The notes under the pieces were generated by a model. It made no database searches. It worked only from the letters and a program-made list of their open reading frames with translations, and was not told the DNA's origin. A program made the translations under genes and the position numbers. Below are positions 1-19,768 of a stretch of DNA of 64,000 bases, piece after piece. Position 1 is the stretch's first letter. Every line of letters begins with the position of its first letter. Source of the stretch: Gammaproteobacteria bacterium (GTDB lineage: Bacteria > Pseudomonadota > Gammaproteobacteria > SZUA-140); assembly GCA_015488555.1 (NCBI GenBank), contig WFNO01000066.1:1842-65841 (forward strand), read 5' to 3'.

Positions 1-759
1 CCCACCGCGGTAGCCAAGGCCCTACAGGAACTCGCATGCGACGTGCTGGACTTCGAGCAACACGCTGACTTCCTCAGCAACCGGGAATTCCGCTGCAGCC
101 TGCTCTGCCGTCCGGACAACACGCCTAGCGATCACATCCCCCCTGAACGCCTGGAGCAGCTCTGGCTCTCCTCCCTGGCCAAGCGCGTCTCCCTGCCCCG
201 GGAACGCTTCGGGGATACCATAGGCTTCCAGAACAACTACGGCGGCACCTTCGTCGACCCGCATCCCGCCTTCCAGCAGGCCATGTTCCGCATCGTGGAG
301 CAGTATCCCGCCGCCGTCCGCGCCGGCGAGTTGAAAGAGGAATTGCAGATCGATGACGCGGAATGGCCATTGCTTGCCGAAAAACTCCTGCGCGCCCGCG
401 CGGCACAAGTACTCAACATCACCGTGGATGTCCCGGCGGTAACCACCGCCATCGCCCTCAAACCCAAGGCCGATGCCCTGGCGCGCCATCTGGCATGCGA
501 GACCCACGAATTGCCCACCCCCTGGCACGAAAACGTGGGCGTGGACGGTTTCATTCGCCAACTCCTGCCCATGCTGGACGGCACGAGAACCCGCGAGGCA
601 CTACTCGACGCTATGCGCCGGCTGTTGGACGAGGGCCGCTATCGGGCGGAGGCGGGCATGGTGCCGCCCTTGGATCCGGCCGCGCGGGAAGGCTGGTTGC
701 GGGAAAACCTGGAGCGCAGCCTGAAATTCCTGCTGCGCAGCGGCCTGCTGTCCGCCTGA
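1..759 (+). CDS. Hypothetical protein, C-terminal part. The gene runs off the window's 5' end. It may correspond to the regulatory domain of a predicted methyltransferase family.
   Basis: The frame is open from nt 1 with no stop before 759. The ORF-track segment 43..759 is in the same frame. The family assignment is from weak recall only. Confidence 0.45.
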   Translation, partial: PTAVAKALQELACDVLDFEQHADFLSNREFRCSLLCRPDNTPSDHIPPERLEQLWLSSLAKRVSLPRERFGDTIGFQNNYGGTFVDPHPAFQQAMFRIVEQYPAAVRAGELKEELQIDDAEWPLLAEKLLRARAAQVLNITVDVPAVTTAIALKPKADALARHLACETHELPTPWHENVGVDGFIRQLLPMLDGTRTREALLDAMRRLLDEGRYRAEAGMVPPLDPAAREGWLRENLERSLKFLLRSGLLSA

Positions 760-779
760 ACCGGCATCACTGCCCAGCT

Positions 780-2123
780 TCACTGCTCGGCCAGTTTCTT
801 CTCCAGATAGTGGATGTTGGTACCGCCCGCACGAAAGGCGGCATCGTTGATGATGTCACGGTGCAGGGGCACGTTGACCTTGATGCCCTCGATGACCAGC
901 TCGTTGAGCGCGGTACGCATGCGCGCCAGGGCCGAGGCGCGGGTCTCCCCGTGGGCGATGATCTTGCCCACCAGGGAATCGTAGTAGGGCGGTACCGTAT
1001 AGCCGTTGTAGAGATGGGAATCCACCCGGATGCCGGGGCCGCCCGGTTGATGATATTGGATGACGGTGCCCGGCGAAGGCGTGAAAGTGACGGGATCCTC
1101 GGCATTGATGCGGCATTCGATGGCGTGGCCGCGGATCTCCAGGTCCTCCTGGCGGTAGGACAGCGGTTCTCCGGCAGCAATGCGAATCTGCTCCTTGACG
1201 ATGTCCACGCCGGTGATCATCTCGGTCACCGGATGCTCCACCTGCAGGCGGGTATTCATCTCGATGAAGTAGAATTCGCCGTCCTGATACAAAAACTCGA
1301 AAGTGCCGGCGCCCAGATAGCCCATCTCGCGGCAGGCCCGGGCGCACAGCTCGCCGATGTGGCGGCGCTGCTCCTCGCTGATGCCCGGAGCGGGCGCCTC
1401 CTCGATCACTTTCTGATGGCGCCGCTGCATGGAGCAATCCCGTTCGAAGAGATGGATGGCATTGCCGTGCCGGTCCGCCAGCACTTGCACCTCGATGTGC
1501 CGGGGGTTCTCCAGGAACTTTTCCATGTACACGGTGCCGTCACCGAAGGCGCTTTCCGCCTCGGCGCGGGTCATGGCCACGGCATTGCCCAGGGCGGCAT
1601 CGCTGTACACCACCCGCATGCCGCGCCCGCCGCCGCCGCCGGCAGCCTTGATGATGACGGGAAAGCCGATCTCCCGGGCCAGGGCCAGGTTCTTGCCGGG
1701 GTCGTCGCTCAGAGGACCATCGGAGCCGGGGATGGTGGGAATGCCATAGCGCTTCATGGTCTCGATGGCGGAGATCTTGTCCCCCATGAGGCGGATAGTC
1801 TCGGGGCGGGGGCCGATGAACACGAACCCACTCTGCTCCACCCGATCGGCGAAATCAGCGTTCTCCGCCAGGAAACCATAGCCGGGGTGAATGGCCACCG
1901 CATCCGTCACCTCCGCGGCACTGATGATGGCCGGGATGTTGAGATAACTCTCGGCGGAAGGCGGCGGGCCGATGCATACCGATTCGTCGGCGAGGCGCAC
2001 GTGGATCAGATCCCGGTCGGCGGAGGAATGTACGGCGATGGTCTTGATCCCCATCTCACTGCAACAGCGCAGGATGCGCAGGCCGATTTCACCACGATTG
2101 GCAATGACGATCTTCTCGAACAT
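780..2123 (-). CDS. accC: Acetyl-CoA carboxylase biotin carboxylase subunit
   Basis: 447-aa ORF beginning [17 protein letters not shown], with ATP-grasp motifs. It lies immediately downstream of accB. Confidence 0.95.
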
Positions 2124-2149
2124 GGAAGAGCCCTATGCGATGACGAGCC

Positions 2150-2614
2150 TTACTCGATGATGAACAGAGGCTGGCCGTATTCCACCGGCTGGCCGTTCTC
2201 CACCAGGATCGCTGCCACCACGCCTTCCTTGTCAGACTCGATCTGGTTGAGCATCTTCATGGCCTCGATGATGCACAAGGTATCCCCCACCTTCACGTGC
2301 TGGCCCACTTCGACGAAGGGCTGGGCACCGGGCGCCGGCGCCCGATAGAAACTTCCCACCATGGGAGAGGTGATGACGTGACCTTTGGGCGGTTCCGCCT
2401 CCTCTTTCGTTCCCACCTCCTCCGCTTCCGGTTTGGCTTCCACTTCGGCCGGAACCGGCGCCGCCGGCGGCGGTGTCGCGATCACGGTCTGGGCCTGCGC
2501 CTGCGACGCATAGCGGCTGATGCGTACCGACTCCTCACCTTCATGGACCTCGATCTCCGCCAGATCCGACTCTTCCAGCAACTCGATGAGTTTCTTTATT
2601 TTTCGGATATCCAT
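2150..2614 (-). CDS. accB: Biotin carboxyl carrier protein of acetyl-CoA carboxylase
   Basis: 154-aa ORF with an Ala/Pro-rich linker and the C-terminal biotinyl motif EAMKM. Confidence 0.95.
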
Positions 2615-2686
2615 CTTGGTTCAGCTATTTCTGATTCTTCTCGTGACCGCGCTCCCCGCGAGCTTCCTCCAGCACATTCGGGTGAC

Positions 2687-3136
2687 TCACGCCCCCTCCC
2701 CGGCCAGACGCCGAATGGCCGCCTGCAGTGCCAGTTCGTACCCCTGGGCCCCCAAGCCGCAGATCACCCCCACCGCCAGGTCGGAGAAATACGACTGCCT
2801 GCGAAAGGGCTCGCGGGCATGGACGTTGGACAAATGGACCTCGATGAAGGGGATGGCGACCGCTGCCAGGGCATCGCGCATGGCGATACTGGTGTGGGTG
2901 AAAGCGGCAGGATTGAGGATGATGAAGGCGACGCCCTCCCGCCCGGCGGCCTGGATGCGTTCCACCAGTTCGTGTTCCGCGTTGCTCTGGAAGTCCAGCA
3001 CCTCGTGACCGGCGGCCGCCCCCAGCCGGCGCAGCTCCGCGGTGATGGCCCCCAAATCCCGCCGACCGTAGTGCTCGGGCTCACGCTGGCCCAACAGGTT
3101 GAGATTGGGCCCATTGATCACCAGGATTTTGGCCAC
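2687..3136 (-). CDS. aroQ: Type II 3-dehydroquinate dehydratase
   Basis: 149-aa ORF beginning (M)[22 protein letters not shown] start. The conserved aroQ-accB-accC order is present. Confidence 0.9.
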
Positions 3137-3440
3137 CCCGCCTTTCGTCTCCCCGATTTTCTTCTCGTTTTCTCCGGTTTCCTACCGCTTGCACTCGGTT
3201 TACCTGGAATGAGTGTTCGATGAACGGCTTGCCCGGGATTCTGTACAACGCGTGTCAATTTAACACCCCTCCCGGAAGCATGTCCAGTTATGCGGAATTC
3301 AGGGCCTGTTCGGCGCAGTTCGTGGCGTGTTGATCACCCTATGGCATTCCAGCAGCGCGCCGGCCAAGGCGTACGTCCGTTGGGGAAGGCACTGGAAGGG
3401 TTCGGAAAGGCCAGGCGGGAGAGAATCGAAATGAGAATGA

Positions 3441-4013
3441 TTAGCGTTTGTCACCGACCCCTTCGAGGAGTTGGCGAAGCTGGGATTTCTTGATCTCGCC
3501 GTACTGGAGGTGGGCGATACGGCCCGCACGGTCCACCAGCACGGTATAGGGCAGCACGCCCAGGCTGTTGCCGTAGGCCTGGGCGATCTCGATGGCGTCG
3601 TCCTCGCCGATGAGGATGGGATAATTGATGGTCACGCCCAGTTCCTGCAGGAACTCTTCCACCGCCGGGCGCCGGTCCACCGCCACGCCGATGAACTGTA
3701 CGCCGCGATCCGCGTATTCTTGCTGCAGCTCCACGAAGACAGGCATCTCTCGCCGACAAGGCAAGCACCAGGAGGCCCAGAAATTGAGCACCAGGATGCG
3801 ACCGTCCCATTCGGAGATCTCGCGCGGAAAACCGTCCAGGTCAGGCAGTGAAAAGTCCGGGCGTGGTTTGCCCACCAGGGCCGCAGTGACATGGTCGGCG
3901 GCCTCGCCGGTGCGCTGTTGCAGGAGCTGCTGGTAGAAATAATTGAACAATAGAGCACCGCCGCCCACGACCAGCAGCACCAAGAGTATGCCGGACGGTG
4001 GCAGGCGAGCCAT
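3441..4013 (-). CDS. TlpA/DsbE-family thioredoxin-like thiol:disulfide oxidoreductase
   Basis: Internal Met (M70 of the 3441..4220 ORF) gives a 190-aa protein with a signal anchor and a WCLPC motif. The ATG overlaps the dsbD stop (TGATG). Confidence 0.8.
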   Translation of the reverse strand: MARLPPSGILLVLLVVGGGALLFNYFYQQLLQQRTGEAADHVTAALVGKPRPDFSLPDLDGFPREISEWDGRILVLNFWASWCLPCRREMPVFVELQQEYADRGVQFIGVAVDRRPAVEEFLQELGVTINYPILIGEDDAIEIAQAYGNSLGVLPYTVLVDRAGRIAHLQYGEIKKSQLRQLLEGVGDKR

Positions 4014-6031
4014 CAGCTCAGTCCCGTCTCCATCCGAGCCCGCAACTTCCGCACATGACGCCCGAAATCCTCGGGCCCCAGAAAGCCGATGAGCCGGAAT
4101 TCCTTCATCTCTCGTCCATTGCGGTCGAAAAACAACACCGCCGGCGGCCCGAATAGACCAAAACGGCGCAGCAGCGCCCGATCCTGGGCATCGTTGTCCG
4201 TCACGTCGACCTGTAACCATACCACATCGGCGAGGATGCGGCGCACTTCGGGGTCACTGAAGGTCTTGCGCTCCAGGCGCTTGCAGTCGATGCACCAGTC
4301 GGCATAGAAATCCACCATCACCGGCCGCCCCTGCGAGGCGGCCGCGGCGATCTCCCGGTCGAGGCCCTGCGGGCCTTTGACCGGTCGGAACGAGGCCGTT
4401 TCACCAGCCCCTATTCCATCGGCCCACCCGGCGGACCACGTCTGGTTCGAATTCCCGTTCACGCCTGCTGGTCCTTGTATGCGCGGCAAGCCCTCGCCCC
4501 ACAGGCCCTGCAGGGGGCGCAGGGGATCCACGCCACCGGCTGCGGCCCCCACCAGCAGCACCACGCCATAGACGGCCATCACCACCCCACCGCCTTTCCA
4601 CAACCGGCGCCAGCCGGAGGCGCCCGCTTCCAGACGGTCGAAGACGCCCAGATAGACCGCCACCACGATGAGCAGCACCGCCCACAGCAACAAAGTCACC
4701 TGGGGCGGCAGGATGCGCTCCAGCAGCCAGATGGCCACCGCCAGCATCAGCACCCCGAAGACGTGGCGCACGGTCTCCATCCAGGGACCGGCCTTGGGCA
4801 ACCACCTGCCGGCCGAGGTACCGAAGAGCAGCAGGGGCAATCCCATGCCCAGACTGAGGACGAACAGGGACAGGCCGCCCACCCAGGCATCCCCGCTCAT
4901 ACCGATGTAGAGCAGGATCCCCGCCAGCGGCGCCGCCACGCAGGGACCGACGATGAGGGCGGAGAAAAAGCCCAGCATTGCGGCCCCAGCCCACCCACCG
5001 CCACCGAAGCGCTGGCTCGCCTCACTCAGGCGGGTCTGCAAGGCCACCGGCATCTGGATCCGGTAGAGCCCGAACATGGACAAGGCCAGGACCACGAACA
5101 GGGCGCTGAAGCCGGCCAGCACCCAAGGCTTCTGGAACCAGATCTGCAGATTGCTGCCGAACAGGGCCGCCAGCACCCCGGCAGCGGTATAGGTGAGCGC
5201 CATGGCCAGTACGTAACTGAGCGACAGCCAGAATGCGCGGCGGGTGTTCATCCCTTGCCGGCCGACGATGAGCCCGGAGAGGATGGGCACCATGGGGAAG
5301 ACGCAAGGGGTGAAGGCCAGCAGCAGACCGAGACCAAAGAAACCCAGCAGGTTCCACCACAGCCGGCCCTCGGCCAGGTCGCGGGCGATGCGGTCCTGCT
5401 CGCTCAAGAATCCCGTGCCGCCATCACCCGCAGCACCCGCGGTGGCGGCCGCGCCGGAGAGATCCGCCCGTTCGTCCGACCCGGCCGGCAACAGCAGCTC
5501 GCTGCGGGCCTTCATGGGCGGGTAACAATATCCTTTCTCGGCGCAGCCCTGGTAACCCACCTCCAGGATCACCCGCCGGGCCTGAACGGCGTCGCGAGCC
5601 AGGGGCAGGCGCACCTCCAGCTCGCCGTAATAGACTTCCATGCGCCCGAAGAACTCGTCCTCCTTGAACTTGCCGCGGGGAAATTGCGGCGTCCCCAGGG
5701 CCAGTTCGGTCTCGTTCCCTTCCCCGTCACCTGCGAACAGGCGGAACGTGAATCGCTCCCGATAGAGATAATAGCCGTCGGCCACGCTCCAGCTGGCCAC
5801 GATGGTGCGGGCATCGGCCGCCTCGGCGGAGAAGACGAAGGCCTGATCCGGGGGCAGGAATTCCTCCGCCTGACCGCCCAGGCCCAATATCCCCATCCCC
5901 CCGGTCCGGCCGCTCGAGCCGCCGCCCAGCAGTCCGCTGCCTCCATGGACGGGCAGGGCCAGGAACAAGCACAGCGCCAGGCATACTAGGGTGGCGCAGC
6001 GATCGCGTGCCTTGGTCTTATGCTCCGTCAT
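4013..6031 (-). CDS. dsbD: Thiol:disulfide interchange protein DsbD (protein-disulfide reductase)
   Basis: 672 aa with a signal peptide, a periplasmic N-domain, a multi-TM core and a C-terminal thioredoxin domain carrying WCIDCK. Confidence 0.9.
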   Translation of the reverse strand: MTEHKTKARDRCATLVCLALCLFLALPVHGGSGLLGGGSSGRTGGMGILGLGGQAEEFLPPDQAFVFSAEAADARTIVASWSVADGYYLYRERFTFRLFAGDGEGNETELALGTPQFPRGKFKEDEFFGRMEVYYGELEVRLPLARDAVQARRVILEVGYQGCAEKGYCYPPMKARSELLLPAGSDERADLSGAAATAGAAGDGGTGFLSEQDRIARDLAEGRLWWNLLGFFGLGLLLAFTPCVFPMVPILSGLIVGRQGMNTRRAFWLSLSYVLAMALTYTAAGVLAALFGSNLQIWFQKPWVLAGFSALFVVLALSMFGLYRIQMPVALQTRLSEASQRFGGGGWAGAAMLGFFSALIVGPCVAAPLAGILLYIGMSGDAWVGGLSLFVLSLGMGLPLLLFGTSAGRWLPKAGPWMETVRHVFGVLMLAVAIWLLERILPPQVTLLLWAVLLIVVAVYLGVFDRLEAGASGWRRLWKGGGVVMAVYGVVLLVGAAAGGVDPLRPLQGLWGEGLPRIQGPAGVNGNSNQTWSAGWADGIGAGETASFRPVKGPQGLDREIAAAASQGRPVMVDFYADWCIDCKRLERKTFSDPEVRRILADVVWLQVDVTDNDAQDRALLRRFGLFGPPAVLFFDRNGREMKEFRLIGFLGPEDFGRHVRKLRARMETGLS

Positions 6032-6159
6032 GTCAGCATGAAGATCGATGGAGGCCTCTTGGGCGCGGGGAAAACCGGAACAGGCCGGTTATAGCGCAAT
6101 CGGCCACCGCTCCTCCAGGACACAAGTCACATTCCGTGAATCGATTCGTCGCAGTCGCC

Positions 6160-6489
6160 TCAGACCGGCGGACGGGTCTCCGCGTCCATCCAGTCCAGAT
6201 AGGCCTTGAGTCCCGCCTCCAGGGACAAGGCGATGATCTCCGGCACCTCATAGGGATGCAGCTCGCGGATGCGCGCCTCCAGGGACGGATAACAGGCCTT
6301 GCGGGTCTTGATGAGCAGGAGGCACTCGCTGGCCATCTCGCGCCGCCCCTGCCAGTGAAAGATGGACGTCAGGCCCTTGACGATGTTGACGCAGGCCGCC
6401 AGGCGCTCGTCCACCAGTGCCTCGGCGATGCGTTCCGCCGAACCATCCTCGGGACAGGTGCACAGTACCAGGCAATGGCGCTCGCTCAT
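6160..6489 (-). CDS. cutA: Divalent-cation tolerance protein CutA
   Basis: Internal Met gives 109 aa beginning MSERHCLVLCTCPEDG...IVKGLTSIFHWQG. cutA upstream of dsbD as in E. coli. The longer ORF-track extension is low-complexity antisense of fxsA. Confidence 0.85.
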   Translation of the reverse strand: MSERHCLVLCTCPEDGSAERIAEALVDERLAACVNIVKGLTSIFHWQGRREMASECLLLIKTRKACYPSLEARIRELHPYEVPEIIALSLEAGLKAYLDWMDAETRPPV

Positions 6490-6588
6490 GGATGGGGCCC
6501 TCTCCAGCATTGATCCAGCATCGATCCGGACATCGATCCCGCATCTTACCATCTCTGCAAAGGTGCAAAAATGGTATAGTGGGAGATC

Positions 6589-13777: not shown

Positions 13778-15085
13778 TCACATTCCTCCTTCGCCGCCGG
13801 CAGCGTGCGCTGCGGCTTCCTGTGCAGGGCCCACTTCTCCGAATCCCAACCAGCTCAGGACCTGGCCCGAAGCCGCCAGCCAGTTCACCCATGCGGACCA
13901 GGCCTCGGCCTCCAACTCGACGGCGGCCAACTCGGTATTCAGGGTTTGTTGCAATTGCACCAGATATTCCGTGGTATTGATCTCACCGCTCTCCCACAGT
14001 CGTTGCAGCAGTTTCACCCGGCCCTGCAGACTGGGCCGGCCGCTGCGCTCCCAATCCACCAGTGCCTGGCGAGTCAGGCGATAGCGGTCCGCCGCCGCCG
14101 CCATGGCCGCCCACACGCGCCGGCGCAGGTTGCGGCTGTCGGCCTCGCTGCGCCGGGCCTCGGCGGCGGCGGCCTCCACCTCGGCCCGGAAGGGATTGCG
14201 CACGAATAGGGGAATGGTGAGCGTGAGACCGATCAGCGAATCCTCCTCCTCCCGGCCGCCGCGCAGGCCCAGAGTGGGATCGGGACGGCGCTCGCGGCGC
14301 GCCAGCTCCACCCCCGCGCGGGCCGCCCGGCTCAAGGCCAGCGCCTCGCGCAGCCGGGGATGGACCGCCAGCAGGGTCTCCGAAGGCTGCGCTGCGTGAG
14401 CGGGGGGCAACGCCGGCAAGTGTGGCCAGGACGCAGGCACCCGGGAGACCAGGGCACGCAGATTGGCCTCCGCTTCCGCCAAGGCCGAAGCACGACCCGC
14501 CGCAGCCATGCGCGCCTCGCTCAGGGCGAGACGGGCCAGATCCACGTCGCTCTGACCCACGTCGCCAGCGGCGAAACGGCGCTGGGCCAGTTGCAGGAAA
14601 TCCTCCAGCAAAGCTACCCGGCGCTGGGCCAGGCGGGCGAGGCGCTCTCCCGTGTGATAGCGGCTCAGGGCGTCCAATACTTCCCGCGCCACCTGCTGGC
14701 GTACCTGGTCATGGGCCGCACGGGCAGCGCGCATCTCCGAGTTACCACGCTCGTGGCGGGCTTCTCGCTTGTCCGCCCAATCGATGGTCTGACTCAATCC
14801 GAGGGAAGTGGTATTGACGCCGGTGCGCTCGGCATCCAACTCCAACTCCGGGTTGTAGAGCGGGCGTCCCGCGGCACGAGCACGGGCCTGCGCCGCTACC
14901 AGGGCCGCCTCCGCCGCGCGCACCTCCGGGTGCTCGGCCAGCACTTCGTCCACCAGCGTCGGCAATAAGGAAGACGCCGAAATCGAAGAGGAAGCCAGCA
15001 CAGACGCGGGCGCAGCGGTAATCGCTTGCACATACAGCGACCATACGAAAAACAAAACGATGAAACTCAAATTCCTGAAGGACAT
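13778..15085 (-). CDS. czcC: TolC-family outer-membrane efflux protein, CzcC-like
   Basis: 435 aa with a signal peptide and two OEP repeats. Confidence 0.85.
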   Translation of the reverse strand: MSFRNLSFIVLFFVWSLYVQAITAAPASVLASSSISASSLLPTLVDEVLAEHPEVRAAEAALVAAQARARAAGRPLYNPELELDAERTGVNTTSLGLSQTIDWADKREARHERGNSEMRAARAAHDQVRQQVAREVLDALSRYHTGERLARLAQRRVALLEDFLQLAQRRFAAGDVGQSDVDLARLALSEARMAAAGRASALAEAEANLRALVSRVPASWPHLPALPPAHAAQPSETLLAVHPRLREALALSRAARAGVELARRERRPDPTLGLRGGREEEDSLIGLTLTIPLFVRNPFRAEVEAAAAEARRSEADSRNLRRRVWAAMAAAADRYRLTRQALVDWERSGRPSLQGRVKLLQRLWESGEINTTEYLVQLQQTLNTELAAVELEAEAWSAWVNWLAASGQVLSWLGFGEVGPAQEAAAHAAGGEGGM

Positions 15086-15151: not shown

Positions 15152-15484
15152 TCAGATGCGAGGCGGTTTGGTACCAACCTCAGGATGATAGGAAACCAGG
15201 ACGCGCCAGTAACCCGGCAATTGGAAAACCGGCTGTGTGGTCAGTGCTAGAGCACCGTCGAAGGCCAAGCCCAGAAGATGGGCAGAACCATGACAATAAT
15301 GATCGTGCAAGAATTCACCGCTGCTGAAATCGATTCCGGAATCGGTGCTATCGGCGGATTGCACGAGCGAAGCTGCGACCACCTGCCCATCCGCCAGCAG
15401 GCCTGGGTGGTTGTCCCAAGCCCAAGCCAGGGAAGAGGCCAGGATGCTGGACAACAACAGGACGAGAGTGAACCGTTTGATCAT
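15152..15484 (-). CDS. Small secreted protein in the CzcI position. It carries an HDHYCH motif.
   Basis: Internal Met gives about 110 aa beginning MIKRFTLVLLLSSILASSLAWA. It lies directly upstream of czcC on the same strand, as czcI does in czcNICBA. Confidence 0.5.
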   Translation of the reverse strand: MIKRFTLVLLLSSILASSLAWAWDNHPGLLADGQVVAASLVQSADSTDSGIDFSSGEFLHDHYCHGSAHLLGLAFDGALALTTQPVFQLPGYWRVLVSYHPEVGTKPPRI

Positions 15485-15664
15485 GCCTCGCTCCGCGGCG
15501 ACGTGATTTCGCCGTGAGTATAACAGCCTTATCGCACGAACGTCATATCGGATGACTCGTTCCTTCCCTTGAACGAGCAATGGAAACGGGATCGGAGTGC
15601 TTACACTCCGACCCCATCGATTTTGTCGATTCTGTCATCTGACATCTATCATCTGACATCTGGG

Positions 15665-16282
15665 TCATTTCGCCGTATGCATGAACGCCGCCAGCAGCAC
15701 CGCGGCATCCCGCAAGCGCGTGGCGAAGACCCGCGTGGGCTTGTCACCACCGACAGCGGCCTCGGCCCTGTTCACCAGATCAGCCACGCTCAAGCCCTCA
15801 TAGCCCTCGATGAAACCCTTGCCCACGGTGCCTTCGAATTCCGGAATGTATTTCTCGCTCAAGGCGGTGAGAGCCACTTTGGTGACCTTGCCTTCGGCAT
15901 CCAGGCCCACGCCCACCGCCAGATCGCCGTGGCGATAGCCGGCCTTGAGGATGATGGCGCCACCGGCGATCCGACCATCGCTGCGGTCCTTGGCCAAATA
16001 ATAGGTGTAGAGGGACTCGTCCAGATCCACGCCGTAGGTCCGTTCCGCCCACTCGGCGCCCTCGTCGCTGAGGCGTTGTTTGCGCTTGACGATCTTGAAA
16101 TTGCCCCCGGCCGGAAGCATGGCGCGCAGGGCTTCCTTTTGCTTGAGGAAATGCACCAGCGGCCCGCCATGGCCCTTGTGCGCCAGGGCTGGCGCTGCCC
16201 AGCCACCGGCCACCAGTAGGGCGGCCAGCAGAAAGACTACTCCTCGTGTATCGAACCGGAAACCTCGAATCATGCTGCTCAT
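15665..16282 (-). CDS. Periplasmic protein with an FMN-binding-like (FMN_bind) domain
   Basis: Internal Met (MSSMIRGFRFDTRGVVFLLAALLVAGGWAAPALA) gives a signal peptide. The core IILKAGYRHGDLAVGVGLDAEGKVTKVALT...EFEGTVGKGF fits the FMN_bind pattern. Confidence 0.55.
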   Translation of the reverse strand: MSSMIRGFRFDTRGVVFLLAALLVAGGWAAPALAHKGHGGPLVHFLKQKEALRAMLPAGGNFKIVKRKQRLSDEGAEWAERTYGVDLDESLYTYYLAKDRSDGRIAGGAIILKAGYRHGDLAVGVGLDAEGKVTKVALTALSEKYIPEFEGTVGKGFIEGYEGLSVADLVNRAEAAVGGDKPTRVFATRLRDAAVLLAAFMHTAK

Positions 16283-16385
16283 TTGCTGCCTCCTCGTTCG
16301 GGGTACGGCCGCCACTGTCCGGCAGGCGGCCGTGGTGTACGAAATGGCCGGCCGGGGAAGGGAGTTGCGCTCCCCTGCCCGCCGG

Positions 16386-17165
16386 TCAGGGCATGTCGCG
16401 GGCACGCACCCAAATGATCGCACCCACGTGGAGCGGATAGGCCTTGCCCTTGTGCTCCATGGTACGGCTCTGGTCCACCAGGGCGGAGAAGCCCCACCAG
16501 CCGGCACGGGGCATGGCATAGGTGAACACACCATTGGCATCCGCCTTGACCACCTGGGTGATGAAGGGATCGGCGGGCGCGCGGGCGCTGCCGTCCTGGT
16601 TGTAATACTCCACCACCACGCGGGCGAAGGGCACGGGTTTGCCATTCAGCTTGACCACGCCCTGGAAGACGTTGTTCGTCCACAGGCCATAGGGACGGGT
16701 GAGCGGTACGATCTCGGCCTCCAGGCCCAGCTCGCGATCCCAACCCTCTTCCAGGCCGAAGGTGTTCACCACCACCTTGGTGTACTGGACGAGGAAGATC
16801 TCCTCGGCCTCGTCCCAAAAGACCTCGGGCACCACGTAGAAGATGTGATCGCCCGGCTTGCGGAACTTGTAACGCAGCGTGTAGGCCGGCAACAACTCAC
16901 CCTGGCGGTCCCGCACCTGCACCGGCTGCAGGCGTGGCAGCAGGTCCTGGTCGCGGCCGGCCACCCACACGCCCACGCGCCGGGGCTTGGCCATGGGCAC
17001 GCCCAGGTCCTCGAAGGGATGGGTGAACCGGATCTCCAGGTCTACGGCGCGCCGCTCTTCATGGGTCACCACGTCGTCTGACGGGATGAGCAACTGGTAA
17101 TGGGCCATGGCCGGCGAGGATACGCCGGCCATGGCCCCCAACAGAATGGCGAGCACGCGCCGCAC
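16386..17165 (-). CDS. DUF4198-like periplasmic (transthyretin-like) protein
   Basis: The putative GTG start gives MRRVLAILLGAMAGVSSPAMA|HYQLLIPSDD. The HYQL start and beta-rich body are typical of DUF4198 proteins. The family assignment is from memory. Confidence 0.55.
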   Translation of the reverse strand: MRRVLAILLGAMAGVSSPAMAHYQLLIPSDDVVTHEERRAVDLEIRFTHPFEDLGVPMAKPRRVGVWVAGRDQDLLPRLQPVQVRDRQGELLPAYTLRYKFRKPGDHIFYVVPEVFWDEAEEIFLVQYTKVVVNTFGLEEGWDRELGLEAEIVPLTRPYGLWTNNVFQGVVKLNGKPVPFARVVVEYYNQDGSARAPADPFITQVVKADANGVFTYAMPRAGWWGFSALVDQSRTMEHKGKAYPLHVGAIIWVRARDMP

Positions 17166-17181
17166 CAGACCACCCCACCGC

Positions 17182-18264
17182 TCAGTCGAGGTGTTCGTGG
17201 GTAGGGCCAGCCTCGCCGCCACCCAGTGCATAGCTGATGCCCAGACTCCAGCGATATTTCTCGTCGTTGGATATACCGCCCAGGTTCTGATAGACGGGAT
17301 AGGAGAAGTTGCCATAGGCGACGATGCTGCGGTTGAGCTTGAAATTAATGCCTGGCGAGAAATAGACCACGTCACCGCCGCTGTTCTTCTTGAGTTCGCC
17401 ATCTTCATTGTCTTTCTTCGCAAAGATGCCGTTGAGTTCCACCACCGGCGTGATCCAGGCATGGTGATTGTAACTCAGGGCCACATCCGCCTGCCAGGAA
17501 TTGCCGCTGCGGAAATTGTTGGCACCGGGACCGTTGACGCGTAGTATCCAGTCGGCATCCAGGGCCAGCTTGTCCGTGAGGTGGCCGCTGTAGGCGATAC
17601 CAGTCTGGACCGTGAAGGCACCGCTGCCCGGCTGGTTGTGGGTACCCAGCACCTCGTCCTGGCCGGTATACCGGTTCTTGTCGGTCTTGTTGGTGAACTT
17701 GCCGGTGGGCATGAGCAACCCAAACAGCCCTGCCCATTGGTGATTGCCGTCGTTGTAGAAGCGATAGCGGGCCATGAGCAGGGTGTCCCCCCAGCCCGGC
17801 GACTCGTCCGTCTCCGAGATACAGATCGGATCCAGGTTGTCCAGAATCCCATCACCGTTAGTATCAAAACAGGCCATGGCCTGACCATCACCGTTGTCCT
17901 TGAAGCCCTGGAAATTGTTGTACTGGGTCATGATGGCCAGATCGATGTCCTCGGCCACCGGAATGCCGATCTGGATGAAATAGGCGTCCTCCCGGGAATG
18001 CTGGTGGACGTCCTCGCCGCGCGCCCGGAAGTCCACCATCTCCTGGTCCGAGAACAGCTCATAGCGGCGCGCATCCCAGCGCAGGCCGATGACCACGTCT
18101 TCCACGATGCCGGCACCCACCGCATTGATGCTGCCGGAACCACCGCCGCGAATGGATTCGCCATGCGCGAAGGCCGTATTGTGAACCAACAACAGTGAGG
18201 CCCCTCCCATGGCCAACAATGCCACTGCCTTGGACAGAGATTGCGAGTGTTTGGATTGCTTCAT
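17182..18264 (-). CDS. Secreted beta-rich protein, a putative outer-membrane channel or porin
   Basis: 360 aa with signal peptide ...VHNTAFA|HGE, SD AGGAGA and alternating hydrophobic beta-strand patterning (RYRWSLGISYAL). No identifiable family. Confidence 0.55.
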   Translation of the reverse strand: MKQSKHSQSLSKAVALLAMGGASLLLVHNTAFAHGESIRGGGSGSINAVGAGIVEDVVIGLRWDARRYELFSDQEMVDFRARGEDVHQHSREDAYFIQIGIPVAEDIDLAIMTQYNNFQGFKDNGDGQAMACFDTNGDGILDNLDPICISETDESPGWGDTLLMARYRFYNDGNHQWAGLFGLLMPTGKFTNKTDKNRYTGQDEVLGTHNQPGSGAFTVQTGIAYSGHLTDKLALDADWILRVNGPGANNFRSGNSWQADVALSYNHHAWITPVVELNGIFAKKDNEDGELKKNSGGDVVYFSPGINFKLNRSIVAYGNFSYPVYQNLGGISNDEKYRWSLGISYALGGGEAGPTHEHLD

Positions 18265-18370
18265 TTCGTTCTCCTAAGTCATTGGGTTAGTTTAAATGAC
18301 GTCGATGTATCGGACCGGAAAGCGCATCCCAGCACACTCCGTCGTAGATTCCCACAGTTTCATCTCATTC

Positions 18371-18390
18371 TTATTACGTAATAATTATTA
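18371..18390. promoter_or_regulatory. Overlapping AT-rich perfect palindromes (TTATTACGTAATAA and TAATAATTATTA). This is a candidate metalloregulator operator in the divergent promoter region.
   Basis: Both palindromes are exact and sit in a 434-bp GC-rich intergenic region between the secreted-protein gene and the His-rich gene. Approximate coordinates. Confidence 0.45.
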
Positions 18391-18698
18391 ATCATACCGC
18401 ATACCCATTGCACGCGCAAGACCCCGGGACCGTTTGGAACCGGCGCTGAAAACGGGCACGTGGCTTCGCCGTTATCGGCGGCAGTCTTGAAATCTTGCAT
18501 ATGGCAAATGGCCAACAGTCCCCGTGCTCGAGATGTTCCGGAAATCGAGATGCAATCGGAACACCCCGGTGTTAAAGTCGGCGGGCACGATGCCGAAACA
18601 GCGGTGGGCGGCGGCCCAGCGCCCGATCGCATCCTGGCCTGCCCTTTGCGTGGCATTCGTCCCCGTAAACAACAAACCAACCCTGAAGGAGAACGCGA

Positions 18699-18971
18699 AT
18701 GGAAGGTCCACACAAGCATAGCCATCAGCACGAGCACGAACATCGCCACGGCGAGCACGAACACCCCCACACCCATGCCGACGGCACCACCCACAGCCAT
18801 CCCCACGCCCATATCCACAGTCACACCCACGTGCACGAGCACGAACACCCCCACACTCACGCCGGGGGCAGCGACGACCACGATCACCAGCACAGTGAGG
18901 ACGAGCTGGCCGGGCACGACCACGATCACCCGGATCACGATCGCGAGAGTCACGAAGACCACAGCCACTGA
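18699..18971 (+). CDS. Histidine-rich metal-binding protein (about 35% His, Hpn-like)
   Basis: 90 aa, MEGPHKHSHQHEHEHRHGEHEHPHTHADG..., with an SD GAAGGAGA 7 nt upstream. No signal peptide. A rho-independent terminator follows. Confidence 0.7.
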   Translation: MEGPHKHSHQHEHEHRHGEHEHPHTHADGTTHSHPHAHIHSHTHVHEHEHPHTHAGGSDDHDHQHSEDELAGHDHDHPDHDRESHEDHSH

Positions 18972-19066
18972 AAACCGGCCGCCGTGAAGAAGGGATCCCG
19001 GTTCTGCTGACAAAAGTGTGCCAGGATTACGAAAATTTCTACTCGAAAAGCCGGTTTTTTCTCACA

Positions 19067-19094
19067 CGCCCCGCCTCACGCGGGGCGTTTTTTT
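19067..19094 (+). terminator. Rho-independent terminator after the His-rich gene
   Basis: Stem CGCCCCGC / GCGGGGCG with a CTCA loop, followed by seven T. Confidence 0.6.
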
Positions 19095-19136
19095 GGGTAT
19101 CATGGCGCCATCTCAAAGCTGACGGGAGCGCACATC

Positions 19137-19403
19137 ATGATGGAAATGGAACACGAAATGGGTGGTGGCATCTTCGACATGATGTGGATCTTCCCCATTT
19201 TGTTCTGGGTCCTCATCATCATCGGAGCCTTTTTCCTGGTCAAATGGCTGCGCCAGCCTCCCAGCAGTGAATTGTCCAGCAAATCGGCCGCCTCGCAGGC
19301 GGTAGAGAAAAGCGACGCCGCGGGCGAACCGCAAATACCGCCCCAGGGCGAGTTCAACGGCCCGCACAAGAGTAACGGCAGGAGCAGTGGAGAGGGACCG
19401 TGA
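19137..19403 (+). CDS. Small single-TM membrane protein with a Met/His-rich N-terminus (MMEMEHEMGGG)
   Basis: 88 aa with an SD GGGAG upstream and one hydrophobic helix WIFPILFWVLIIIGAFFLV. Its end overlaps the next gene's GTG start. Confidence 0.45.
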   Translation: MMEMEHEMGGGIFDMMWIFPILFWVLIIIGAFFLVKWLRQPPSSELSSKSAASQAVEKSDAAGEPQIPPQGEFNGPHKSNGRSSGEGP

Positions 19404-19768
19404 AAAAACGGGGTTGGTTCTACGGCGGCGTGGCCTTGATCCTGCTGGCCCTGACCGGGATCTTCACCCTGTCGGGCATGAACCGCCATCACGAAGGGAT
19501 GATGGGCGGCATGGGTGGGGAAGATCGTAACGACGCGCACTCCCTGGACCATCTACCGGCTGGTATGCGCCACGATCCTGCCGCCGACGTCTTCCAGGCC
19601 TCCTGTTCCGGCTGTCATGCGCCGCCGGATCCGCGCCGCTATTCGGCCGCGGAATGGCCCGCCGTGGTTGCCCGCATGCGCCAGCATATGGTGACGCAGG
19701 GCAGGCCCGTACCGCCCCCGGAGGTGCTGGGCACCGTGGTCGAGTTCCTCCAGCGACACGCCCGCTGA
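19400..19768 (+). CDS. Membrane-anchored monoheme c-type cytochrome-like protein with a Met/His-rich segment
   Basis: 122 aa from a GTG start. N-terminal TM helix, HHEGMMGGMGG region and a CSGCH (CxxCH) haem-binding motif. Confidence 0.5.
   Translation: MKKRGWFYGGVALILLALTGIFTLSGMNRHHEGMMGGMGGEDRNDAHSLDHLPAGMRHDPAADVFQASCSGCHAPPDPRRYSAAEWPAVVARMRQHMVTQGRPVPPPEVLGTVVEFLQRHAR

Follow-up and report, generated by a model that had tools for sequence, protein, structure and literature searches.

The buffering of nickel and cobalt in the bacterial cytoplasm, and their routing between importers, chaperones, and exporters, has been worked out in detail for only a few model organisms. In coordination chemistry, poly-His sites are good zinc binders. 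A small protein of Nitrosomonas europaea, SmbP, binds several divalent ions and has repeated motifs that contain His. Helicobacter Hpn is induced through NikR and is required to supply urease and hydrogenase with nickel. Hpn sequesters nickel and transfers it toward nickel enzymes, with 5 Ni bound per monomer; it is found solely in gastric Helicobacter, and its sequence includes one or two -CC- motifs as well as His runs (PMC4671568). The His-rich segments of HspA and Hpn are regarded as a nickel reservoir (PMC4671568), and LarC1 binds nickel through a His-rich surface (PMC13510736). The cytoplasmic loop of the exporter RcnA contains 17 to 53 His residues (PMC11247825). Cytoplasmic metal binding by poly-His segments is thus already known as a kind of function. 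What is new here is a His-rich module that forms an alignable, portable family.

The window is the whole 64,000-nucleotide stretch of DNA that we analyzed. The initial annotation described in it a 90-amino-acid (aa) protein, about one-third His in HxH repeats, with a strong Shine-Dalgarno (SD) sequence and its own terminator, and each of these features held up (Table 1). We counted 33 His residues among the 90 (36.7%), together with 11 Glu and 10 Asp. Cys, Phe, Trp, and Tyr are absent, and Ile, Val, and Leu occur once apiece. The His residues alternate strictly (HxH), and there is no HH dipeptide. Among the 524 six-frame open reading frames (ORFs) of at least 60 aa in the whole window, this ORF ranked first in His content (about 35 to 36.7%), and the runner-up reached 13.9%. 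The GC-rich terminator begins 95 nt after the stop codon and has a fold energy of -25.9 kcal/mol (z = -3.7 versus shuffles). The 3' untranslated region (UTR) is weakly structured (z = -2.2), and the 5' region (18400-18710) is not structured above shuffles (z = +0.56). A sigma-70 scan upstream of the gene found no convincing promoter. Rfam at gathering thresholds gave no match in the whole window, and a permissive Rfam scan of 18200-19200 gave just weak, terminator-driven small RNA matches and no NiCo or other riboswitch. When we scanned the 90-aa protein against Pfam and NCBIfam, no family was returned.

Table 1. Coordinates of the His-rich gene, its signals and predicted segments, and the neighboring features (positions in the window)
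Feature	Position	Strand	Remarks
His-rich protein CDS, 90 aa	18699..18971	+	Stop TGA at 18969-18971; sequence MEGPHKHSHQHEHEHRHGEHEHPHTHADGTTHSHPHAHIHSHTHVHEHEHPHTHAGGSDDHDHQHSEDELAGHDHDHPDHDRESHEDHSH
Shine-Dalgarno core AAGGAG	18686..18691	+	7 nt before the ATG; read from sequence
Intrinsic terminator	19066..19095	+	9-bp stem (8 G-C) at 19066-19088, 5-nt loop, T7
Residues 5-25, first (HX)n block, predicted beta-strand 1	18711..18773	+	AlphaFold2; His register invariant in alignment A2
Residues 26-30 (ADGTT), predicted hairpin turn	18774..18788	+	Between the strands; center of the widely shared motif HTHADGTTHSHPH
Residues 31-50, second (HX)n block with conserved HSHPH, predicted beta-strand 2	18789..18848	+	A2 and AlphaFold2
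Residues 51-90, Gly/acidic linker and His/Asp/Glu C-terminal tail	18849..18968	+	Ends in HDHDHPDHDRESHEDHSH; low model confidence
Two overlapping perfect AT-rich palindromes, candidate operator	18371..18390	.	TTATTACGTAATAA at 18371-18384 (14 nt) and TAATAATTATTA at 18379-18390
Outer-membrane channel (OMP), Phenol_MetA_deg family	17182..18264	-	First gene of divergent string; PF13557, E = 3e-10
DUF4198 periplasmic metal-binding protein	16386..17231	-	PF10670, E = 1.5e-55
CzcC	13778..15085	-	In divergent string
P-II-like gene, 110-120 aa	9082..9444	-	Wedged between P1B ATPase and czcA
Short P1B ATPase, 637 aa	7165..9078	-	N-terminal metal-binding domain absent
88-aa protein gene	19137..19403	+	Just 3' of the terminator; Met/His/Glu-rich N terminus (MMEMEHEM), one transmembrane helix
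122-aa membrane-anchored protein gene	19400..19768	+	CSGCH haem-c motif; overlaps the 88-aa gene
Antisense Val/Met-rich ORF, 217 aa	18360..19013	-	Exact antisense codon phase; shadow of His codons

Reading the N terminus (MEGPHKHSHQHEH), we found no hydrophobic core, no Sec signal peptide, and no twin-arginine/RR motif. Because there is no signal peptide and the same module is fused in its relatives to cytoplasmic proteins (CbiO-type ATPases and CooT; see below), a cytoplasmic location, which the initial annotation had deduced from the missing signal peptide, is supported and seems probable to us.

The exact 90-aa protein is called on 11 public contigs, with the same context in each. These 11 copies are identical in DNA across the ORF and are therefore uninformative on selection. 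A word-indexed homologue search with the single sequence gave one weak match and little else. An exhaustive phmmer search of 1.84 billion representative sequences gave five hits. One of them (P0003) is a repeat protein that we set aside as a chance match, and two others (P0004 and P0005) align over all 90 residues. In both, the His-rich part starts at an internal Met preceded by AAGGAGG and is therefore a separate cistron, which gene callers have merged with the upstream ORF. Pattern scans of metagenomes and genomes, which yielded at least two and at least three true loci, respectively, added free-standing orthologues from a Desulfovibrionaceae MAG (L010), a Desulfobacteraceae MAG (L012), and a metagenome contig (L013).

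The five other free-standing orthologues are 86 to 88 aa long and 53 to 64% identical to the window protein, with nearly gapless alignments. All five have an SD sequence (AGGAGG type) 5 to 7 nt before the ATG, comparable to that in the window. The orthologues keep the start M-E/K/Q-G-x-H, the central HSHPH, and the C-terminal H-D-x-E-x-H-x-H-S-H. The six free-standing sequences share 32 invariant His columns, and the codon switches between CAC and CAT in 30 of these 32. Pairwise pN/pS among the six was 0.21 to 0.35 in the sense frame, versus 0.92 to 1.75 in the in-phase antisense frame. We then compared the sequences with a composition test in which the His positions were fixed and the non-His residues were permuted. 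Non-His residues were identical at 13 to 29 of about 53 columns, versus 5 to 7 expected (P ≤ 0.004 in 15 of 15 pairs), so that matches were 2 to 4 times more frequent than composition predicts. We concluded that 18699-18971(+) is a genuine, conserved gene. The initial annotation had called it probably a real, separately expressed unit; the orthologues and the purifying selection on the sense frame bear out the first part, and its expression is something that we infer. A lack of homologues beyond compositional bias, which had been named as the outcome that would speak against the gene, is not what we found, because the length, register, termini, SD sequence, and non-His residues are retained in orthologues from unrelated lineages and purifying selection acts on the sense frame.

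Over its full length of 90 residues, the window protein matches the 86- to 90-aa module of a seven-sequence alignment (A2; 52 to 64% identity) and follows its pattern, that of an HxH-hairpin family. The module begins with M-[EKQ]-G-x-H and about 11 HX repeats. A G/D-rich turn follows (ADGTT in the window) and then about 10 more HX repeats, which open with a near-invariant H-S-H-P-H. The C-terminal half consists of a Gly/acidic linker, HDHxH, EGEHG, and then HDHxHPxH-D-x-E-x-H-(x)-D/E-H-S-H. Across the seven sequences of A2, 29 His residues are invariant. The C-terminal motif H-D/E-x-E-x-H-(x)-D/E-H-S/P/K-H is also kept where the module is fused to CooT or CbiO. We searched the full-text literature for the family motifs and for CooT or CbiO proteins with His-rich tails and found neither described. 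To our knowledge, CooT proteins have been described without such a tail. Taken together, the window protein is the founding member of an undescribed family of His-rich modules.

AlphaFold2, run with a four-sequence alignment (A3), predicted one long antiparallel hairpin whose strands comprise residues 5 to 25 and 31 to 50, with pLDDT values of about 79 to 92; for residues 51 to 90, pLDDT was 50 to 56. An independent model, of a CooT fusion, gave the tail a matching two-strand topology (pLDDT, 41 to 71). Because HxH alternates, the His residues of a strand would lie on one face. We offer the predicted hairpin, with every His on one face, as a hypothesis built on shallow four-sequence alignments. 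A PDB sequence search with the family profile returned chance zinc-finger matches alone (E > 4), and a Foldseek search of the model against the PDB returned long hairpins of pore-forming toxins alone (E > 0.25), which we regard as meaningless.

Several gene calls within the family (P0017, P0019, P0022, and P0023) switch midway from HxH to Thr/Pro/Asn-rich sequence, which is what the +1 or -1 frame of CAC/CAT repeats encodes. Frameshift errors thus seem to be frequent in this repetitive DNA, unless the slippage is real. Separately, the motif HTHADGTTHSHPH is common to P0001, P0002, P0007-P0014, and P0013. P0002 is a 1,755-aa eukaryote-like protein with Cys-rich and FN3-like regions; it carries about 11 tandem units containing HEHTHADGTTHSHPH, and these are identical over 13 to 15 residues to residues 22 to 36 of the window protein (18762-18806). 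The same turn motif is found at the head of P0007-P0014 and P0025, which are PF26551 proteins, and also inside the LarC fragment P0013. The sharing of this motif with P0002 and PF26551 could reflect either convergence on a metal-binding turn or transfer.

A profile search and inspection of the loci revealed the module as a C-terminal tail in two kinds of larger protein. In four distinct clusters (P0006, P0015, P0018, and P0020), it is the tail of CooT (PF10133), a nickel accessory protein of CO dehydrogenase. In four other cases (L011, L014, P0016, and P0021), it is the tail of double CbiO-type ABC ATPases. The L011 operon, from a Desulfotignum MAG (258-6228), encodes an LbtU-like porin, DUF4198, two small proteins, a CbiM-like protein that begins MHISDG, CbiQ, and CbiO-CbiO-tail. 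One of the small proteins (110 aa) is secreted with an N-terminal His, and the other (97 aa) is also secreted. The operon encodes an ECF-type Ni/Co importer and provides a complete route for Ni/Co from the outer membrane to the cytoplasm. It is a good candidate for an experimental model.

Other members lie next to or within genes for metal trafficking or cobalamin synthesis. In L009, the module is directly 3' of a LarC N-domain (PF01969), and in P0013, it is an insert within a LarC fragment. It adjoins CobU in L013 and CobO in L016. In L008, it lies 3' of a frameshifted gene for a CDF exporter with a His-rich loop, and a peptide/nickel-type ABC importer and FmdE are also found upstream. At that locus (5200-6573), the CDF gene is split over two frames, the last of which enters the His-rich ORF without a stop, with the SD sequence and ATG kept. 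This arrangement may be a snapshot of how a tail fusion originates, or it may be an assembly error. For four free-standing members (L010, L012, L015, and L018), metal-related neighbors were not evident; the stand-alone gene is therefore not bound to one operon. In no locus did we see a Zn-specific partner (ZnuABC, COG0523, ZinT, or Zur). All the fusion partners that we found, namely, CooT, CbiO of CbiMQ-type importers, and LarC, are specific for Ni/Co. The family thus includes His-rich segments joined to Ni/Co-trafficking proteins (the CooT and CbiO fusions) or beside one (LarC in L009). In the window, the gene is free-standing, and its sole link to trafficking is its neighborhood to DUF4198 and HME-RND efflux genes.

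We consider it probable, from the sequence relationships above, that the 90-aa protein is a soluble cytoplasmic buffer or hand-off protein with multiple sites for Ni/Co (possibly Zn). Because the same module is the tail of a Ni/Co importer ATPase and of CooT, the free-standing form would most likely be a version of that tail acting in trans. Its approximately 33 imidazoles and 21 carboxylates would bind many divalent transition-metal ions, which is the sole obvious chemistry of the protein. The two HxH runs would pair into a long hairpin and present a flat, two-row array of about 22 imidazoles. As for stoichiometry, each ion might be held by three or four His residues on one hairpin or be sandwiched between two hairpins, and the flexible C-terminal tail might capture ions and pass them on. 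As the tail of a CbiO ATPase, the module would receive the ion leaving the transporter. As the tail of CooT, it would be a reservoir, like the His-rich extensions of HspA and Hpn. The free-standing form would bind Ni(II)/Co(II) (with Zn(II) less likely) on its entry into the cytoplasm, keep it buffered, and hand it on to chaperones or exporters; this direction of transfer is the one that we presume.

The initial annotation placed the gene divergent from a czc string. It is indeed divergent from a minus-strand string, across an intergenic region of 434 nt, but its immediate neighbors there are the OMP and DUF4198 genes, and czcCBA lies further down the same strand. The order of the string is OMP, DUF4198, two orphan genes, CzcC/B/A, the P-II-like gene, the P1B ATPase, CutA, and DsbD. 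The efflux genes in the window encode a CusA/CzcA-family RND pump, a CzcB/NccB adaptor, an OEP, and an ATPase best matching Cd/Zn subfamilies. Because the His-rich gene lies beside a heavy-metal efflux island, protection against overload would be as plausible a role as storage. The two orphan genes encode secreted proteins of 205 aa and 110 aa, the latter with HDHYCHGSAH. The P1B ATPase has APC in place of CPC in its transmembrane motif and HEAS in its last helix, motifs that we take to resemble those of the Co/Ni/Zn P1B-4 type.

The DUF4198 protein of the window is 46% identical (E = 5e-90) to that of the Desulfotignum L011 operon. In both, the first residue past the predicted signal cleavage site is His (AMA/HYQ in the window and ALA/HFG in L011, the slash marking the site). 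A DUF4198 protein has been found by crystallography to bind nickel, with a Kd of 18 nM, via its N-terminal His (PMC12537917), and the DUF4198 protein Zcp captures zinc (PMC12663993). Over 15152-18264(-), the string starts with OMP and DUF4198 and continues, without an obvious break, into the orphan secreted proteins and CzcCBA. The OMP-DUF4198 start looks like metal capture or uptake, and a mixture of uptake-type and efflux-type components in one string is unusual.

A palindrome in the divergent intergenic region had also been reported, and it is present, perfect, and 14 nt long. It overlaps a second perfect palindrome, and both are AT rich within an otherwise 64%-GC region. TTATTACGTAATAA is unique in the window, with 0 occurrences expected by chance (none in 100 shuffles). 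The palindromes are upstream of both genes but much closer to the OMP start (about 107 nt) than to the His-rich ATG (about 310 nt). We looked for the palindrome at all other family loci, and it was absent outside the window's species. Compared by eye with consensus sequences, it did not fit the Escherichia coli NikR box and matched the Fur consensus at about 10 of 19 positions, which we take as a lead only. In the 64-kb window, we found no metal-responsive regulator gene, no Ni enzyme, no Ni/Co inner-membrane importer, and no tRNA or rRNA gene.

The main alternative, which we consider unlikely, is that the same molecule handles zinc or cadmium: it would be a cytoplasmic Zn/Cd buffer of the adjacent efflux island and would hold the excess until export. 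The window neighbors taken by themselves (the Czc-type RND system, the Cd/Zn-family P1B ATPase, and CutA) would fit Zn/Cd/Co no less well than Ni. Poly-His sites bind zinc well, Zcp provides a zinc-capturing DUF4198 protein, and the L008 gene lies 3' of a CDF exporter gene with a His-rich loop. In contrast, the fusion partners found are all of Ni/Co type, the cobalamin genes CobU and CobO are among the neighbors, and Zn-specific partners were seen in no locus. Further, the DUF4198 protein of the window keeps the N-terminal His of the nickel-binding class and is 46% identical to that of the Ni/Co importer operon. These comparisons favor Ni/Co as the preferred metals.

A function unrelated to metals, either as a His-based pH buffer or as a disordered protective or condensate-forming protein, strikes us as improbable. 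The extreme composition, the low model confidence of the C-terminal 40 residues, and the occurrence of some members in contexts without metal genes would all fit such a function. However, repeated independent fusions to Ni/Co-handling proteins and 29 to 32 conserved His positions are unexpected for a bulk pH buffer, and the conserved terminal motifs favor specific interactions.

The terminator lies between the ORF and co-oriented downstream genes, the 88-aa and 122-aa genes, and this raises the idea of a regulatory ORF in which 33 His codons sense the charging of His-tRNA, or metal, and control read-through into those genes. For these two genes, we found no Pfam family and only sub-threshold cytochrome c matches in NCBIfam, and they accompany the His-rich gene in the window's species only. 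We give the regulatory idea very little credence, and given the fused forms, in which the module is a domain of larger proteins, it is largely refuted. Ribosome-coupled attenuation is excluded because the gap between stop codon and terminator is too great. We found no alternative antiterminator in the weakly folded 3' region, the non-His residues and termini are conserved, and the downstream genes differ among orthologues and are not His-biosynthesis genes. A his-operon-type leader peptide or attenuator was also rejected as a candidate: the ORF has 90 codons, and the downstream genes encode membrane and CxxCH proteins.

The weakest reading, which is already refuted and has next to no probability left, is that the + strand ORF is noncoding, being either a chance ORF in AC-rich DNA or the reverse of a true antisense gene: the antisense frame is similar in GC3 and is open because CAC/CAT reads GTG/ATG and the composition excludes antisense stop codons, but its pN/pS rules it out as a gene, the synonymous variation of His codons becomes V/M changes in it, it runs 340 nt into unconserved intergenic DNA, and the sense start, stop, and SD sequence are conserved across six lineages.

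Returning to the Ni/Co buffer or hand-off protein, we also put forward a more speculative joint reading, which as a whole we think doubtful but worth stating. The module could be a beta-hairpin domain, portable and so far unrecognized, in which a row of metal ions templates the fold (a "histidine zipper"). Ni/Co importers could use it as the dock that receives ions in the cytoplasm, and CooT/LarC-type nickel insertion systems could use it as their reservoir, in the form of either a tail or a diffusible, stand-alone carrier. PF26551 proteins and the animal-like 1,755-aa protein could have come to carry its turn motif, HxHxDGTTHSHPH, either by transfer or by convergence. The conserved, alignable His module would offer a concrete candidate, easy to test, for the cytoplasmic acceptor that is missing at the Ni/Co importers of environmental anaerobes and of bacteria exposed to metals. 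As a natural, short, Cys-free peptide with a presumably high capacity, it is also a potential tag for metal capture, affinity purposes, or biomineralization. The alternating HxH design predicts an unusual, metal-templated beta-hairpin.

Among known systems, the bacterial metallothioneins (SmtA/BmtA type) were rejected as relatives: the protein contains no Cys at all and matches nothing in Pfam or NCBIfam. The Sec/Tat signal of secreted or periplasmic binders, such as SmbP and ZinT-like proteins, is absent, and the module is fused to cytoplasmic ATPases. SmbP is periplasmic, with a signal peptide, and helical, whereas the 90-aa protein has no signal peptide, is predicted to form a beta-hairpin, and matches no PDB chain. 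The His-rich loops of exporters (RcnA and CDF/DmeF) are also cytoplasmic and HxH/HD rich and are thought to chelate Ni/Co/Zn at the transporter. The L008 member, in frame after a CDF gene, recalls these CDF-type exporter segments. However, the RcnA and CDF loops are internal to membrane proteins, whereas the HxH module has a conserved architecture of its own and occurs as a soluble, separate protein or as a C-terminal tail.

The initial annotation likened the protein to Hpn and to the His-rich tails of metal chaperones. As a functional analogy, this is supported by the fusions and neighborhoods; homology to Hpn is not, since BLASTP against an Hpn sequence gave no alignments at E ≤ 100. None of the five hits in the exhaustive phmmer search was Hpn-like. 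The 90-aa protein is thus not a homologue of Hpn but a presumed analogue. Like it, Hpn and Hpn-2 are small (60 to 72 aa), cytoplasmic, and without a signal peptide, with about 37 to 47% His. Unlike Hpn, the 90-aa protein lacks Cys altogether, and its His residues never form HH pairs but alternate as HxH. Their ranges also differ: that of Hpn is gastric Helicobacter, whereas the HxH family, which has fused forms too, comes from Desulfobacterota-type MAGs and from a Gram-negative MAG lineage of 64% GC. The His-rich regions of metallochaperones and insertases (CooJ, UreE, HypB, SlyD, HspA, and LarC1) are likewise attached to Ni-trafficking proteins as a local reservoir or surface. These known chaperone tails are lineage specific, of low complexity, and mutually unalignable, whereas the HxH module, with its various partners and as a gene of its own, keeps its length, register, termini, and non-His residues.
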